Source: an uncultured Collinsella sp. (GTDB taxonomy: Bacteria; Actinomycetota; Coriobacteriia; Coriobacteriales; Coriobacteriaceae). From it: a DNA stretch of 64,000 nt. This document shows positions 6,922-64,000 of this stretch, piece by piece. Positions within the stretch are counted from its first letter, which is position 1; every line of letters starts with the position of its first letter. Both the position numbers and the translations under genes were made by a program. The stretch lies in assembly GCA_902495545.1 (NCBI GenBank), contig CABUXM010000002.1:1674-65673 (forward strand), written 5' to 3'. Below the pieces are notes generated by a model. The model made no database searches, was not told the origin of the DNA, and worked only from the letters and a program-made list of their open reading frames with translations.

Positions 6922-7506
6922 TCAGCGAGTATTGAATCTATCCGCCCATGCAGCCACGTCGAATAACTCCAGATTGGGGTAACTGACCGTTTCGCCCGTT
7001 TCTTTAAGACAGGCCTCCGCGGCGTTGCACAGCGAGCTCGCGAGCGACGCCGCATCAACGCGGAACGTCACGCTCTTAGTCGCACGCATCCCGCTCTTGG
7101 GCGACGGCCAGGAAGAGCAGAGGGCGTTGCACCCGTGGAGGACAAGCTCGAACTTGTAGTCGTAGTCGAAGCTCTCGTCTTTCTCGGGAGCATCGACCGA
7201 CACATCGTAGTCGCCTGAATGCAACAGGGAGCACCGGAGCTTCCAGCACATCTTCCCATTAAAGATTTGGCCTGGAATCGTTTCACCTTCGTTCGAGGGG
7301 TCTCCCGAAAACAGGAAGTCGTTTGCCGCCCAGTCATCAAACCACTTCACATACTGCCGCCCCGCCGCTCTCTTCCCGTTATGAAGGACGAGATTGGGGT
7401 AAAGAAGCTGCCCCATGGCGTCGGGAATGGTAAGGGAAGACATAAGGGCTGGGATAAGGCAGTCTTTCTCAACCGCATTTCTAATCGATTCGACGAGTAG
7501 CTTCAT
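6922..7506 (-). CDS. hypothetical protein (third gene of the island operon)
   Basis: 194 aa ORF, 28 nt downstream of the preceding ORF on the same strand. Codon usage is gene-like but less GC3-biased than the core genes. I recognise no family. Confidence 0.55.
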   Translation of the reverse strand: MKLLVESIRNAVEKDCLIPALMSSLTIPDAMGQLLYPNLVLHNGKRAAGRQYVKWFDDWAANDFLFSGDPSNEGETIPGQIFNGKMCWKLRCSLLHSGDYDVSVDAPEKDESFDYDYKFELVLHGCNALCSSWPSPKSGMRATKSVTFRVDAASLASSLCNAAEACLKETGETVSYPNLELFDVAAWADRFNTR

Positions 7507-7534
7507 TTCGATGCCTCAAAAAGTCTATGCGGTC

Positions 7535-21127: not shown

Positions 21128-21883
21128 ATGGCGCGAGCCATCTTCCAAACTATTTATGACAACGTGAAGCAGTCGATTGACGACGGCACATACGCCTATC
21201 AGAGTTATCTGCCTTCGGAGACTGAGCTCACGCAGCTGTTTGACTGTTCGCGCATGACGGTCCGTCGCGCCATCTCGATGCTTGCGGCAGATGGTTACGT
21301 GCTCCCCCAGCAAGGCAAAGGCATGCGCGTCATTCGCAACATCAGTGACGAGAAGAGTCGTGGCGGCGGCGGACTCGAGACCTTTAAGGAAATCGCGACC
21401 AGCCGGGGCTTTGAGCTCAAGACTGTCACCACCGTCTTTGAGCTCCTCGTCTGTAGCAAGGCACTCTCCAGGATTACCGGGTTTCCCGAAGGCTGCGAGC
21501 TTACGCGCGCCAAACGCATCCGTTATGCAGACGGACATGCCGTGTGCTCCGACGACTCCTATTACCTAAGCTCACAGGTACCGGGGCTGACACCCGAGAT
21601 TGTCAACGACTCGATCTATCGTTACCTCGAAGAAGACCTTGGCATTAAGATTGCCACGGGCAAACGCGATGTAACGATCGAGCATCCCACGCCCGAGGAT
21701 ACGCGCGTGCTCGATCTCGACGACTTTAACGCACTCGCCGTTATACGCGGGCAGACCTACAACGCCGACGGCATCCTTATGGAATACACCGAGACCAAAC
21801 AGGTCCCCGGGTTCTTTTTGCTCCATGAAACCGTGACGCGCAACGGTACCGGTCGAACCGGCCACCAAAGCAGCATGAACTAA
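21128..21883 (+). CDS. GntR-family (HutC subfamily, UTRA domain) transcriptional regulator
   Basis: 251 aa. The N-terminal YLPSETELTQLFDCSRMTVRRAISMLAADGYV is the GntR wHTH. Length is consistent with HutC/UTRA. Confidence 0.85.
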   Translation: MARAIFQTIYDNVKQSIDDGTYAYQSYLPSETELTQLFDCSRMTVRRAISMLAADGYVLPQQGKGMRVIRNISDEKSRGGGGLETFKEIATSRGFELKTVTTVFELLVCSKALSRITGFPEGCELTRAKRIRYADGHAVCSDDSYYLSSQVPGLTPEIVNDSIYRYLEEDLGIKIATGKRDVTIEHPTPEDTRVLDLDDFNALAVIRGQTYNADGILMEYTETKQVPGFFLLHETVTRNGTGRTGHQSSMN

Positions 21884-21892
21884 CCATCTATT

Positions 21893-21965
21893 AGTTGCGG
21901 TGGGATAGTTCCTAGAATGGCCAGCTTAAGGGCAAAACAGGAACTATTCCACCGCAACTTTTTTG
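21893..21965 (+). terminator. rho-independent terminator
   Basis: A near-perfect 21-bp stem (20 of 21 positions pair, one G/A mismatch), AGTTGCGGTGGGATAGTTCCT ... AGGAACTATTCCACCGCAACT, is followed by TTTTTT. It lies 10 nt after the GntR stop codon. Confidence 0.8.
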
Positions 21966-31389: not shown

Positions 31390-31466
31390 GTCCCCATCGT
31401 CTAGCGGCCAAGGACGCCACCCTTTCAAGGTGGATATCGCGGGTTCGAATCCCGCTGGGGGCACCA
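31390..31466 (+). tRNA. tRNA-Glu (anticodon UUC), CCA encoded
   Basis: The cloverleaf was folded by hand. The acceptor stem is GTCCCCA/TGGGGGC, the anticodon loop is CTTTCAA, and the T-arm is GCGGG-TTCGAAT-CCCGC. Discriminator A and CCA follow. Confidence 0.9.
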
Positions 31467-31509: not shown

Positions 31510-31759
31510 GCTACCCATACGCCGGGATTCGAACCCGACAGGGCGCGGAGCTGAGGAAACGCGCAAGCGTTTTCCAGCGCAGCACGCAAGGAGCGGAGCG
31601 ACGCAGCGAAGGCGGGCGGCGCCAGCCGCACGCGGACATCCCACTGGGGGCACCACAGAATCTAAGAAGCTCGTTACCAATTCGGTAGCGGGCTTTTTGC
31701 TACCGATATGCCGGGGTTCGAACCCGACAGGGTGCGAACCCCGGCATCATCGCAAGGCC

Positions 31760-31980
31760 TGTGGGCAAAAAATAGCAAATATGAGTACTGTTACCAATTT
31801 AGTAACAGCGATTTCATGCCATCAGAAGACAATTTGGACGCCAAGCGTCCTACGGCGGAGGAAATGTAGGCGTTTATCAGCCAAGTACTTGGATATATGT
31901 TGCGTAATTCTGCGTCTTTTTCAAAAAGATAATGCTACAGGACTTGTGACAGTACTCATATTTGACGTTTTTTGCCCACA
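31760..31980. mobile_element. MITE-like element: about 220 bp, A/T-rich, non-coding, bounded by ~30-bp inverted repeats
   Basis: TGTGGGCAAAAAATAGCAAATATGAGTACTGT (31760-31791) matches the reverse complement of ACAGTACTCATATTTGACGTTTTTTGCCCACA (31949-31980) with 3 mismatches. Confidence 0.5.
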
Positions 31981-38843: not shown

Positions 38844-38951
38844 CACAACGGAAACAACCAAGCACCAAAACGTGCCGCACGCGCCACTTGGCACGTGCGG
38901 CACGTTAGAATAGAAAAGACTATGCTCGTTTTGGCAGATAGGAGCGCAAGG

Positions 38952-40316
38952 ATGGCGATCACGCCCGCAGAAATCGCGGAAACCCGCGGCATGGTTGAGG
39001 AGCAGAACCTCGACATCAGGACCATCACCATGGGTGTTTCGCTCATGGGTTGCGGTGACGAGAACCTCGACCGCATGTGCACGAAGATCTACGACCACGT
39101 GACGCACACGGCTGAGCATCTGGTCGAGACCGCCGAGAACCTCGAGCGCGAGTACGGTATCCCCATCGTCAACAAGCGCGTCTCCGTCACCCCGGTGGCG
39201 CAGATCGCCGCGTGCTGCAAGGATGAGGACCTCACCCCCATCGCGCATGCCCTCGACCGCGCGGCAGAGACGCTCGGCATCGATTACCTGGGTGGCTTCT
39301 CCGCACTCGTCCAGAAGGGCATCGGCGACGCCGATCGCCGCGTCATCCAGTCCATCCCCCAGGCGCTCGCTACCACGAGCCGAGTCTGCTCCAGTGTCAA
39401 CGTCGCTAGCCTGCGCGCCGGCATCAACATGGACGCCGTGCTTATGGCCGCCCAGACCATCATCGATGCCGCTAAACTCACGGCCGACCAGGATTCCGTC
39501 GGCGCTTCCAAGTTTGTCTGCTTTGCCAACATGGTCGAGGACTCCCCGTTTATGGCGGGCGCCGTCCACGGCGGTGGCGAGGCCGACGCCGTCATCAACG
39601 TGGGTGTCTCGGGCCCCGGCGTTATGGCCGCAGCCCTGGAGACGCTGCCCGATTCCGCATCGATGATGGAGGTCGCCGAGAAGATTAAGCAGACCGCCTT
39701 TAAGATCACCCGTGCCGGTGAGCTCATGAGCCGCGAGGCCGCCCATCGCTTGGGTGTCGAGAAGGGCATCGTCGACCTGTCGCTGGCGCCTACGCCTGCC
39801 ATCGGCGACTCCGTTGCCCGCATCCTCGAGATCATCGGCGTGGGCACCTGTGGTGGCCCGGGCACGACCTGCGCGCTCGCCATGCTCAACGATGCCGTCA
39901 AGAAGGGCGGCGTCATGGCCAGCTCCAGCGTGGGCGGTCTCTCCGGCGCCTTTATCCCCGTATCCGAGGACGCCGGCATGATCGCCGCCGTCGAGGCCGG
40001 TGCACTTTCGCTCGAGAAGCTCGAGGCCATGACCTGCGTGTGCTCCGTTGGCCTGGACATGATCGCCATCCCCGGCGACACCCCGGTCGAGACCATCGCC
40101 GGCATCATCGCCGACGAGATGGCTATCGGCGTCATCAATAACAAGACCACGGCCGTCCGCGTGATTCCCGCCATCGGCAAGGGCGTGGGCGACTGCGTCG
40201 AGTACGGCGGCCTGTTCGGCCGTGCGCCCATCATGCCGGTGAACCCCAACGCCGGCACCGTGCTTGCCCACCGTGGTGGACGCTTCCCGGCACCGCTGAA
40301 CTCGCTCAAGAACTAG
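38952..40316 (+). CDS. UPF0210 / DUF711 family protein
   Basis: [31 protein letters not shown]... and a length of about 454 aa fit UPF0210. ATG 38952 follows an AGGAG RBS. Confidence 0.75.
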
Positions 40317-40334: not shown

Positions 40335-40468
40335 GGAACCCCGGGAAGGGCAAATATATAAGGTCGCCTGCTCGGACAGTCCTGACTCGCACGGAGAGCA
40401 CATTAAGTGCTCTCCGGCTCGTGCGGAACTCGCGATCGACCTTATATATTTGCCCTTCCCGGGGTTCC
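40335..40468 (+). repeat. structured repeat element, copy A (32-bp perfect inverted arms, conserved core, central 10-bp hairpin with ATTAA loop)
   Basis: The arms are GGAACCCCGGGAAGGGCAAATATATAAGGTCG (40335-40366) and its exact reverse complement (40437-40468). Core motifs are ACAGTCCTG (40376-40384), the hairpin at 40392-40416, and CGTGCGGAACTC (40420-40431). Confidence 0.8.
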
Positions 40469-40634
40469 CGCACATCTCAACCTTGGCTGAGTTCTGTCCC
40501 ATGTTGCAGTTGCTTCGCTCCTGCACCACATGGTTGATACGGCGGTTTGGCGTTGGATCGGTTCTTTCTGATATATGCTGGTTGCGGCTCTTCTTTTGGG
40601 AGGAGTCGCTTTTTTGTTGTGAGGGGGATGGCCC

Positions 40635-50978: not shown

Positions 50979-51342
50979 TGGTGGAGGCGCGGAGAATCGA
51001 ACTCCGGTCCACGAAAGCCCCCTGATTGGCATCTCCAAGCTCAGTCGCTGGTTTTTTCTCGGACGCTTTGCGCGCAGCGACACGCTCGCGGCGTCCTAAC
51101 CGGTTCGGTCTTAGCCTGCGCCATACCGATTACGTGCGCAGGAGCATTCCCCTAAAATGACGTCGCGCCGGTGTCGGGGAAATCACCGGGTTGACGTGCC
51201 GCTATAAACTAAGCAGCGAGAGCCATAGGCTCAAAAGAAGAGTTGTTGTCAATTCAATTTGACGGTACCCCTGTTTAACGAGGCGAGGAGACCTCGGCTT
51301 GCTTCCTCTCTCAGAGCTATCGTGTCGAAACCAGTCGCCCCC
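50979..51342 (-). ncRNA. ssrA: tmRNA (transfer-messenger RNA), about 364 nt
   Basis: The 5' end GGGGGCGACTGGTTTCGACA... pairs with the 3' end ...GGAGTTCGATTCTCCGCGCCTCCACCA, including the G3:U70 alanine identity pair. The tag reading frame at 51209-51250 encodes DNNSSFEPMALAA followed by a stop. Confidence 0.93.
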
Positions 51343-61518: not shown

Positions 61519-62883
61519 CTAAACGTCAAGATGCGCACAATCAAGCGCCTTTTTGATAAGAGGGACAGATCGATCAGCCAAATACAACGGAATGTTGAGC
61601 ACCCCGTCGTCGAGCTTTAGGTTCTTAAGCGAGTAGCGGACCCTCAATGGAGTCGTCTCCGCATGCTTGTCGGCATAGTACTTAAGGCTCTTGGAATAAA
61701 CGACCTCTCCCGATTTGACCTCGACGGGAACGATTTCGTTTCCGACTTGAATCAAAAAATCGACTTCGTGCTTCGGCTTCTCGTTTGTCCAATAACGCGG
61801 AGCAGCATCTAACTGTGAAAGTAATGCCTGAAGCACATAGTTCTCGGCGAACGAACCTTTGAACTCCGAAAATAGCGCATCCGAGATGGCAAAAGCGGAC
61901 GCATCCAGCCTTGCCATGCGGCGCAGCAAGCCGACATCAAGACAGTAGACTTTAAATGCCTTGAGGTCATCGTACGCAGAGAGCGGCACACCACCGGCAG
62001 CATTAAGGCGAACCGCCGTGATGAGCCCAGCATCGGCAAGCCATTCCAGAGCATCCTCGTATTCTCGAGCACGAGCCCCCTCGCGCACCGCACCCCAAAC
62101 GAACTTTTTGTTCTCGCGCGCCAACTGAGCTGGAATCGAGTTCCATATTTGCGAAAGCTTGGCGAACTGCGCACGGCCACCATGCTTGGCAAAATCGCGC
62201 TCGTAGGAATCCAAGAGATCAGACAACACCTTATCGACCTGAACGATATCGCCCGTCTCCACCCACCGGCCAAGAGCCTCTGGCATGCCGCCGCATGCAA
62301 AATAACGACGAAGATGCTCGACGAGACGGACATGGAAGAAATCGGGCACTGTCTCGATCTGATCCAGGCCGCCAAGGTATTCGTCGTAGTTTGCAGCGCC
62401 CTCGGCTTTCAGAAACTCGGAAAAGCTCATGGGGCGCATCTCCATGAACTCGACCTTTCCCACCGGAAAAGCGCTGGTCTCACGGGACAAGCGAACGCCC
62501 AACAAAGACCCTGCACATGCGACGTGATACTCGGGGGCCTCGTCACAGAAGTATTTAAGGGCGCCGACTGCAGAAGGACAATCCTGGATCTCATCAATAA
62601 TAAGCAGCGTCTCGCCGGGATCGATAGGCTGTCCAAGTGCCAGGGAAAGATTTGAGATGATCCGTCGAGGATCGCGCGTACCCTCGAAAAACTGAGCGTA
62701 CTCGCTCTGTACCCCAGGTGACGGCTCCTCGAGCGTCAGATACACGAAATTGATGTACGAGGTTCGGCCGAACTCCTTAAGCGCCCACGTCTTTCCAACC
62801 TGGCGCGCCCCCTTAAGGATAAGCGGCTTACGATATTCTGACGCTTTCCAAGCGTTAAGCTTGGCAATGATATCTCGCTGCAT
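61519..62883 (-). CDS. AAA-family ATPase with DUF4143-type C-terminal domain (second copy of this architecture)
   Basis: 454 aa. KPLILKGARQVGKTW is the P-loop and LLIIDEIQ is Walker B. The C-terminal ...HEVDFLI...VPVEVKSG is a PD-(D/E)xK-like motif. Confidence 0.75.
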   Translation of the reverse strand: MQRDIIAKLNAWKASEYRKPLILKGARQVGKTWALKEFGRTSYINFVYLTLEEPSPGVQSEYAQFFEGTRDPRRIISNLSLALGQPIDPGETLLIIDEIQDCPSAVGALKYFCDEAPEYHVACAGSLLGVRLSRETSAFPVGKVEFMEMRPMSFSEFLKAEGAANYDEYLGGLDQIETVPDFFHVRLVEHLRRYFACGGMPEALGRWVETGDIVQVDKVLSDLLDSYERDFAKHGGRAQFAKLSQIWNSIPAQLARENKKFVWGAVREGARAREYEDALEWLADAGLITAVRLNAAGGVPLSAYDDLKAFKVYCLDVGLLRRMARLDASAFAISDALFSEFKGSFAENYVLQALLSQLDAAPRYWTNEKPKHEVDFLIQVGNEIVPVEVKSGEVVYSKSLKYYADKHAETTPLRVRYSLKNLKLDDGVLNIPLYLADRSVPLIKKALDCAHLDV

Positions 62884-63089
62884 GGCCGAACCTCCCGCAA
62901 AGAAACTTCCGTAAACGTGATATTTCCCACATTTTACCCTAGGTAAAACGTGACATTTATCACATTTACGGAAGTTTTAAGCTCATTTCGCCACACTTTC
63001 ATCACATTCAAAAGGTGGAGGTGCCAGTGGCGCCTCCGTCACCATCTTTCCTATCAGCCCGCCTGACCCGAACGGCCGAGTCGTCACAG

Positions 63090-63230
63090 AACCCGGGAGC
63101 CCCGGCAGGGCGGGTGCTTGCTCAAAATGAGTTCCGCACGCAAAGAAGGCCACTTAATGTGGCCTTCGTCTTGCGCAGGACTGTTCGAAATTTTGAGGAA
63201 GCACCCGCCCTGCCGGGGCTCCCGGGTTCC
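63090..63230 (-). repeat. structured repeat element, copy B (31-bp perfect inverted arms, same conserved core as copy A, opposite orientation)
   Basis: The arms are GAACCCGGGAGCCCCGGCAGGGCGGGTGCTT (63090-63120) and its exact reverse complement (63200-63230). The core, read as reverse complement, has ACAGTCCTG (63177-63185), the hairpin at 63146-63168 with an ATTAA loop, and CGTGCGGAACTC (63130-63141). Confidence 0.8.
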
Positions 63231-63233
63231 CGT

Positions 63234-64000
63234 TTACGAGAGCGACGTTCTCAGCAACTCGTTGAAGAGCTTCGGGTTGCCCTTGCCGCGGCTCGCCTTC
63301 ATGCACTGGCCCACCAAAAAGCCGATGACCTTCTGGTTGCCGTCACGATACTGCTGCGCCTGATCGGCACAGTTAGCCAGCACCTCGTCCACGATCGGCT
63401 GCAGCGCGCCGGCATCGCTCACCTGACGCATGCCGCGCTCGTCGACGATCTTGTTGGGATCGTCGCCGGTCTGGGCCATCGCCTCAAAGACCTCGTGCGC
63501 CTGGTTGGAGCTGATGGCATCGGTCGCCAGCAGCTTGGCGAGTGCCGCCACCTGAGCCGGCGCGATGCCGGACTCGGCGAGCGACACGCCTGCGCCCTTA
63601 AGGTAGGCGATCATCTCGTTGACCAGCAGGTTTGCGACCGTCTGGGCCTCCTTGCCGGCCATACCGGCAGCGGCGGCCTCAAAGAAGTCGGCAAACTCAG
63701 GGTCGCCGGCAATCTGCTCGGCGTCGGCCGCCTTAATGCCAAAGTCGGCCTCAAAGCGGGCGCGCTTGGCATCGGGCAGCTCGGGGATCTCGCCACGGCA
63801 GCGGTCGATGAACTCGTCATCCAGATCGAACGGCGCCAGGTCGGGATCGGGGAACAGGCGATAGTCGTCGGCCGTCTCCTTCACACGCATGACCACAGTG
63901 CGCTTGCGGCTGGGCTCCCAGTGGCGGGTCTCCTGATAGATGATACCGCCCTCCTCGAGCACCTCGGCCTGGCGGCAAATCTCGTAGGCAAGGCCGTCAT
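63234..64000 (-). CDS. gatB: Asp/Glu-tRNA amidotransferase subunit B (C-terminal part; N-terminus outside the window)
   Basis: ...ETRHWEPSRKRTVVMRVKETADDYRLFPDPDL... is followed by a GatB/YqeY C-terminal domain ...GFLVGQCMKASRGKGNPKLFNELL. Confidence 0.9.
   Translation of the reverse strand, partial: DGLAYEICRQAEVLEEGGIIYQETRHWEPSRKRTVVMRVKETADDYRLFPDPDLAPFDLDDEFIDRCRGEIPELPDAKRARFEADFGIKAADAEQIAGDPEFADFFEAAAAGMAGKEAQTVANLLVNEMIAYLKGAGVSLAESGIAPAQVAALAKLLATDAISSNQAHEVFEAMAQTGDDPNKIVDERGMRQVSDAGALQPIVDEVLANCADQAQQYRDGNQKVIGFLVGQCMKASRGKGNPKLFNELLRTSLS

Follow-up and report, generated by a model that had tools for sequence, protein, structure and literature searches.

Intergenic hairpin repeats with locus-specific arms and a conserved asymmetric core: an apparently undescribed family in Collinsella

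The window analysed here, a stretch of 64,000 nucleotides of Collinsella DNA, contains two long palindromic elements between genes. One of them (copy A) lies on the plus strand behind a gene of the DUF711/UPF0210 family, and the other (copy B) lies on the minus strand behind gatB. A first-pass annotation had already described two intergenic elements that share one architecture and one orientation relative to the gene upstream. Our analysis supports both statements, with the identity of the two upstream genes confirmed by Pfam. The features of the two loci, in window coordinates, are as follows.

38895..40316, plus strand: gene of the DUF711/UPF0210 family preceding copy A, with its stop codon at 40314-40316 (Pfam PF05167, E = 8.9e-182)
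40335..40468, plus strand: copy A, whole element, 134 bp (inverted-repeat scan; covariance model R1, 114.3 bits)
40335..40366, plus strand: copy A left arm, 32 nt, G-rich, 100% complementary to 40437-40468
40367..40375, plus strand: copy A asymmetric internal loop, 5' strand CCTGCTCGG (read from the sequence)
40376..40431, plus strand: copy A conserved core, 56 nt, ACAGTCCTG ... CGTGCGGAACTC (pattern search)
40392..40416, plus strand: copy A apical hairpin, stems 40392-40401 and 40407-40416, ATTAA loop 40402-40406
40432-40436, plus strand: copy A internal loop, partner strand GCGAT (read from the sequence)
40437..40468, plus strand: copy A right arm, 32 nt, C-rich (inverted-repeat scan)
40584..40619, plus strand: terminator-like hairpin and T-run, 116 nt 3' of copy A (consensus scan, pattern match only)
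63010..63037, minus strand: probable terminator of gatB, some 50 nt 3' of copy B; reads GGAGGCGCCACTGGCACCTCC, then ACCTTTT (orthologue comparison)
63089..63229, minus strand: copy B, whole element, 141 bp (inverted-repeat scan; model R1, 108.3 bits)
63129..63184, minus strand: copy B conserved core, 56 nt
63145..63167, minus strand: copy B apical hairpin, GAAGGCCAC, ATTAA loop and GTGGCCTTC as read on the minus strand
63234..63998, minus strand: gatB (3' part), preceding copy B, with its stop codon at 63234-63236 (Pfam: GatB_Yqey, E = 4.5e-45; GatB_N)

The 32-nt arms of copy A pair perfectly, and its left-arm tip, GGAACCCCGGG, is similar to the tips of other copies. In copy B the arms (63089-63128 and 63190-63229) extend over 40 nt and are 98% complementary, with a single mismatch and the first 31 bp perfect. 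Between the arms, both elements carry the 56-nt core pattern ACAGTCCTG-N35-CGTGCGGAACTC, which matches twice in the window and in none of 100 shuffles, in agreement with the conserved core and ATTAA-loop hairpin reported at first. The apical stem below this loop reads CGGAGAGCAC/GTGCTCTCCG in copy A and GAAGGCCAC/GTGGCCTTC in copy B. Both elements are predicted to fold into extremely stable structures, at -99.6 kcal/mol for copy A (z = -12.4) and -116.3 kcal/mol for copy B (z = -15.4). Scanning the 64-kb window with covariance model R1 returned copies A and B only; the initial description of a two-copy family thus applies within the window, and the family at large amounts to tens of copies per genome. 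The best non-family match of the model in the window, at about 20 bits, is a hairpin at 21893-21959 (arms of 21 nt, 95% complementary; loop of 25 nt), located directly after a gene that ends at 21883.

Copy A begins 18 nt and copy B 4 nt after the respective stop codon, each in the sense orientation to its own upstream gene. Sequence inspection and a terminator scan found no T-run abutting either copy, so the earlier remark that neither is followed by a U-tract holds for the adjacent sequence. It does not hold further downstream, where each copy is followed by a terminator-like hairpin with a T-run, and both window copies consequently lie between a stop codon and such a hairpin. Orthologues of copy B are present in L001, L062 and L075, and at the gatB terminator site a clear canonical hairpin with a T-tract was seen in three copy B orthologues. 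At the site in the window itself, 4 of 8 positions are T, slightly under the scan threshold. The hairpin of this probable terminator (63017-63037, minus strand, GGAGGCGCCACTGGCACCTCC) is identical at 20 of 21 positions to the apical hairpin of the core type with an ACTG loop (L033, L056), a likeness that could reflect coincidence or an exchange between the two.

Other structured features of the window include an AT-rich palindrome at 62903-62977, with 36-nt arms (83% complementary) around a 3-nt centre, which is located between the probable gatB terminator and an AAA_14/DUF4143 gene (61522-62883, minus strand). It may serve as an operator and shows partial conservation in L075. A pair of inverted 48-nt arms (31760-31807 and 31933-31980; 79% complementary, 125 nt apart) lies just 3' of a tRNA (31390-31463) and of an 18-bp hairpin (31708-31747). 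A tmRNA gene at 50979-51342 (minus strand, 152.5 bits) bears no relation to the hairpin repeats.

Searches beyond the window revealed a large family. When species-representative genomes were scanned for the exact pattern, at least 120 further loci came to light. Among the matches listed, nearly all came from Collinsella or other Coriobacteriaceae and two from Eggerthellaceae. A profile search with nhmmer in 940 kb of sequence recovered 147 copies, which correspond to about 32 distinct genomic sites, and element length across the family ranges from 100 to 165 bp. In a C. aerofaciens replicon, seven copies occur in a 250-kb stretch, or about 28 per Mb; by extrapolation, the load of this species would be roughly 60-70 copies per genome. 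That replicon (L203-L207) is listed as "plasmid 6" of C. aerofaciens TSDC17.2-1.1 (NZ_OY725717.1, 899,693 bp), and its his, tsaD, eno, topA and thrBC genes identify it as a piece of the chromosome. Two contigs labelled Methanobrevibacter smithii (L025 and L079) also bear Collinsella-type elements, and the bin from which they come is probably contaminated. In an Eggerthellaceae metagenome assembly, L059 carries a tandem duplicate at 7261-7522, with a period of 124 nt, 2.1 copies and 97% match.

The site behind the DUF711 gene illustrates the variability of the family. A relative with 91% protein identity has a divergent member there (L136, 3880-3981; 41 bits), which reads GCAGTCCTC ... TGCGGAACTC and has a different apical stem, so the family must be broader than the exact scan motif. 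In relatives that have no element after DUF711, the stop codon is often directly followed by a canonical terminator.

We found no description of this family in the literature on the core motifs or on repeats of Collinsella and Coriobacteriia. Across the whole window, only the tmRNA and one tRNA reach the Rfam 15 gathering score. At E <= 10, apart from noise, copies A and B matched only a plant miRNA precursor, a match of the generic long-hairpin type (58.5 bits, where the gathering score is 150), in keeping with the first impression that this is not a known RNA family. The parts of the candidate-RNA catalogue of Fremin and Bhatt (PMC8040213) that we could consult list no Collinsella entry near DUF711 or GatB, and some overlap with that catalogue is possible. 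The hairpin family is real and widespread, and it appears to be undescribed. Collinsella is an abundant genus of the human gut for which we found no described repeat or small-RNA repertoire; the family tags dozens of gene 3' ends per genome, and it also disrupts metagenome assemblies, with many contigs breaking off inside an element.

A structural alignment of 32 copies, mostly from different loci, resolves three helices: the long outer arms, an invariant short helix and the apical hairpin. The short helix pairs AGU-CUG with CGG-ACU and includes a fixed C·A mismatch and a U·G pair. Between it and the arms lies an asymmetric internal loop, CYTGCTC(T/GG)AC opposite CGCGA(T), which is kept across loci. 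The 5' arm is rich in G (41% G versus 23% C) and the 3' arm in C, and the arms end in tips with the weakly conserved consensus GGWWyCCCGG. They are 98% complementary overall, with 68 mismatches among 3457 arm pairs; 67 of 113 distinct elements have perfect arms, with a median arm length of 32 bp and a maximum of 49 bp in that set.

Covariation supports this structure. Standard pairs occupy 93.4% of the alignment cells, compared with 69.9% after shuffling, and the covariation score is 0.605 against 0.179 in shuffled alignments, with none of 500 shuffles reaching the observed value. The signal is lost when the partner columns are slid. In the apical stem, five of seven pairs covary family-wide and all cells are paired. 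The compensatory changes first noted between the central stems of copies A and B are therefore a general property of the family.

Conservation along the element forms a mosaic. Between unrelated loci, identity falls from 0.87 in the core to 0.54 in the inner arm (10 nt), 0.40 in the mid arm and 0.37 in the tip, compared with 0.25 in the flanks, so the similarity of the outer tips noted earlier is real and weak. One 56-nt core sequence is found unchanged at six loci that bear unrelated arms, and the seven C. aerofaciens copies all have different arms and few core types. No two loci shared arms, either among the loci compared or among those seven copies, and no conserved motifs were found in the flanks beyond the arms. 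Additional flank likeness between L069 and L097 reflects a local duplication. Orthologues show the same division, with a divergence of 0.17-0.19 in the arms and 0.21 in the non-coding flanks as compared to 0.08 in the core.

Several loci record exchange between copies. In L022 and L005 the apical stems are hybrids whose halves derive from different core types. At L028 (547-654) a chimera with non-complementary arms lies beside a deletion, while in relatives this site, which follows tsaD, holds two convergent elements (L054, 7030-7462); element copies appear to act as recombination substrates there. When we compared orthologous pairs for changes of mid arm and of core type, the two were concordant in 115 + 61 cases and discordant in 33 + 2, and at several orthologous sites the outer tip is kept around a different interior. 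The core patterns fit gene conversion limited to the part that is still homologous, combined with recombination between alleles of different strains. At the copy A locus, L158 differs from L123 by a symmetrical replacement of the mid arm between otherwise identical flanks. This is loosely accounted for by gene conversion; no donor of the alternative mid arm was found among the sequences compared.

The presence of an element at a given site differs between species. The sole clean presence/absence case, L097 versus L069, concerns a block of 215 bp with a GGCA repeat at its flanks, and it fits either an insertion or a deletion. Once in place, elements keep their orientation: it was the same in 648 of 649 orthologous comparisons, the exception being the other element of a pair.

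We next consider the level at which the arms are kept paired. If stems were selected as RNA, G·U-type mismatches should exceed A·C-type mismatches on the transcribed strand. The arms contain 17 G·T-type and 25 A·C-type mismatches overall, and 10 and 14, respectively, in sense copies after a stop codon. Given this lack of a G·U excess, we infer that homogenisation of the DNA, and not selection on the RNA, keeps the two arms matched. Template switching and arm-to-arm gene conversion are processes supported by established work on quasi-palindrome mutagenesis. At L084 (4823-4910) the left half of the core is the exact complement of the right half, which produces a 24-bp perfect apical palindrome; this core is the footprint of a templated quasi-palindrome correction. 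The covariation behind the first impression that the structure itself is selected stands, but by itself it is no proof of RNA-level selection, and the mismatches show no G·U bias. Perfect covariation over long stems is here better explained by DNA palindrome homogenisation, which calls for caution in covariation-based RNA discovery. The core behaves differently. Palindrome correction tends towards perfect palindromes, yet the core asymmetries persist in every copy, which argues that the core is under a strand-specific constraint.

The elements are positioned non-randomly with respect to genes. Seventeen of the 32 sites begin 8-49 nt after a same-strand stop codon, whereas about a third of the sites are not beside one. 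At four or five sites the element follows an opposite-strand stop codon at a distance of 44-94 nt, and two or three sites are between divergent genes. At all 14 sites called convergent by a crude gene caller, the element is nearer to the co-oriented gene (one-sided p ~6e-5 if placement were random); annotation of the downstream gene shows that one of these sites, the copy A locus (L085), is in fact tandem, and the same pattern is seen there. The preference for sense orientation just after stop codons thus extends from the two window copies to the family. Some copies are internal to operons, with the following start codon 13-79 nt away (L026, L041 and thrC-thrB), and the thrC-thrB copy is antisense. 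The upstream genes are varied housekeeping genes among which we found no functional theme. An orientation set by replication was rejected, since copies A and B are opposite to each other within one replichore of uniform GC skew.

The best explanation, which we hold with moderate confidence, is that copies A and B are palindromic intergenic repeats of the REP/ERIC/Correia kind, transcribed with the upstream gene, with arms homogenised within each copy and cores homogenised between copies. Judged from position, an element would be transcribed together with the gene before it and, either in the 3' UTR or between two cistrons, would fold into a highly stable hairpin. At an mRNA 3' end, such a hairpin may serve as a barrier to exonucleases or as an RNase III-type processing site. 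Its position and the analogy with ERIC and Correia elements suggest an RNA role of this kind, and a 3'-UTR element for processing or stability seems the most plausible function. The family probably influences mRNA 3'-end processing of many housekeeping genes.

At the DNA level, arm complementarity would be maintained by correction within the palindrome, through template switching or gene conversion between the arms. Gene conversion between copies would keep the cores alike; it would be restricted to the one part in which copies are still homologous, and this restriction would yield identical cores on unrelated arms. The lasting asymmetry of the core suggests that something strand-specific reads it, most likely a protein. 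A hairpin-only RNA role does not account for the conservation and asymmetry of the core, and an account at the DNA level alone leaves unexplained why copies are oriented with the gene next to them. The sequence composition of the arms could explain the orientation bias. In a sense copy the C-rich arm would be transcribed last and could pair at once, whereas in an antisense copy it would be exposed first and might load Rho.

The family can be compared with several known systems. ERIC/IRU elements of Enterobacteria are imperfect palindromes of about 127 bp. They resemble the Collinsella elements in size, in long palindromic shape and in their location in 3' UTRs and between cistrons, as well as in having tens of copies per genome, stable orthologous sites and no obvious transposase. 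In Yersinia, ERIC orientation is reported to influence the stability of the upstream mRNA. In size and position the Collinsella elements likewise fit the pattern of an imperfect intergenic palindrome of about 100-150 bp within a putative transcription unit. However, ERIC copies share their sequence over the whole length, while the Collinsella family has no whole-element consensus and shares only an apical core with the inner arms (about 90 nt) between locus-specific outer arms; the two groups also belong to different taxa and have no sequence similarity. Correia/NEMIS elements of Neisseria are similar in length (100-150 bp), and their inverted arms form a long mRNA hairpin. These hairpins are cut by RNase III, and we borrow this model for the possible role of the Collinsella hairpin RNA. 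Correia elements are further characterised by terminal repeats of 26 bp that are conserved, by duplication of a TA target, and by promoter and IHF sites, none of which was found in the Collinsella family.

REP/BIME sequences and REPIN-RAYT systems are also extragenic palindromes at gene 3' ends that are inherited vertically, persist and function as hairpins, and REP has a known role in the protection of mRNA 3' ends. REP units differ in being 20-40 nt long with a GTAG-type head, conserved in sequence within a genome and accompanied by a RAYT gene that is usually REP-flanked, whereas the Collinsella arms are locus-specific and have no common head motif. With attC sites the family shares structural recognition, in that paired arms of free sequence are combined with fixed asymmetries, and a strand-specific orientation. 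The layout is the reverse, though, with conserved boxes at the outer ends and a variable centre in attC as opposed to a conserved apex here. Sites of the attC type also stand in cassette arrays next to an IntI integrase, while the Collinsella copies are single, follow housekeeping genes and are conserved at the apex rather than in outer R/L boxes. Intrinsic terminators resemble the elements as GC-rich hairpins shortly after a stop codon, but the Collinsella stems are 3-5 times longer, no T-tract abuts them and separate terminator-like sites lie downstream.

Against this background, several other readings of the family have to be weighed. It is possible, although unlikely, that the elements are a dedicated cis-acting structured RNA, a regulatory family rather than a generic repeat, in which the core would be a protein- or RNA-binding module in 3' UTRs and the stem would be kept by RNA-level selection. 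The strong and asymmetric conservation of the core, the very strong covariation, the sense placement near the stop codon at all 14 sites called convergent, the location 5' of terminator-like hairpins and the 5' arm that stays G-rich would all suit such an RNA. It is harder to reconcile with the lack of a G·U over A·C excess in arm mismatches, which includes the sense copies, with stems of 30-55 perfect base pairs that are unlike known regulatory RNAs, with the absence of a common function among upstream genes, and with copies that are antisense or in divergent regions; the same cores on unrelated arms also indicate exchange between copies rather than selection site by site. The pairing is symmetrical on both strands, as expected for DNA, and this has its place in the idea that the family is mobile, or is a recombination site, and works as a hairpin of single-stranded DNA read by an HUH/Y1 enzyme (as in REPIN/RAYT or IS200/IS605) or by an integrase-type enzyme (as for attC). 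Such a hairpin would explain why the arms are conserved in structure and not in sequence, and why target-site duplications are missing. The strand-specific asymmetries of the core (bulges and the C·A mismatch) are reminiscent of extrahelical bases in attC, and presence varies between species. We nevertheless regard this idea as improbable, because tblastn and phmmer searches with E. coli RayT found no RAYT homologue (best E = 2.1) in 1.63 Mb of Collinsella-type sequence, which is less than one full genome of any strain and covers the surroundings of 120 copies to about 4 kb on either side, and because neither cassette arrays nor an integrase context was observed, orientation tracks the neighbouring gene and not the replichore, and the lack of arm sharing between loci gives no sign of recent copying.

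The remaining two readings, both put forward in the first-pass annotation, fare worse. A classical cut-and-paste MITE, with arms that are terminal inverted repeats bound at conserved tips by the transposase of a parent insertion sequence, is largely refuted and in our view very unlikely. Size, shape and copy number would be fitting, as would the weakly conserved tips and the contigs that break at the element, but in 28 loci the best direct repeats of the flanks measured only 0-3 nt, distributed just as when the pairings were shuffled, loci are only 37-54% identical in their arms, and all seven copies of one genome have different arms. Nor did any partial core in the collected loci lie beside a large open reading frame, the partial core matches there being copies cut off at contig ends. 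That the element ends transcription of the upstream gene as a terminator, by its hairpin alone or with a protein factor, is the reading we find hardest to credit, in spite of the extremely stable hairpin directly after stop codons. Ordinary Collinsella terminators are short stems with T-tracts, terminator-like sites lie 3' of both window copies, some copies are situated between genes of one operon (as at thrC-thrB), and the conserved core would be left unexplained; a self-sufficient terminator in particular does not fit.

A more speculative and unlikely proposal takes the apical core to be a self-propagating cassette. A strand-specific protein would recognise the asymmetric hairpin, the core would spread by conversion among pre-existing palindromic docking hairpins, and the palindromes would repair their own arms. 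If true, the core would be mobile or homing DNA, or a domesticated 3'-UTR module derived from it, outside the MITE, REPIN and attC classes. The REP/ERIC/Correia-like repeat described above remains our preferred reading of copies A and B.

Other origins were considered and rejected. Insertion into pre-existing terminator hairpins found no backing in 940 kb of sequence, where no empty hairpin with element-type arms was present and the ordinary terminators had A/T tracts and 9-16-bp stems. An inverton was rejected by the fixed orientation among orthologues. A phage origin was set aside with two matches to viral contigs only and none in a phage collection, and a plasmid origin with a sole "plasmid" match that is the piece of chromosome mentioned above. 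Judged from sequence and alignments, the elements do not encode a small protein either: a reverse-strand ATG at the loop reads into arms of variable indel content, and the apical stem covaries as a helix and not as codons.

In the course of this work we also observed two other recurrent palindromes in Collinsella. One reads TGTGACAAAGGGAC/GTCCCTTTGTCACA, and the other consists of ATTGGGGACAGACTTAAATG, 12 nt and then the complement of ATTGGGGACAGACTTAAATG. Loci of these two palindromes include L075 (1334-1383 and 7659-7685), L086 (7390-7420) and L105 (1721-1755), as well as L048, L068, L087 and L102.
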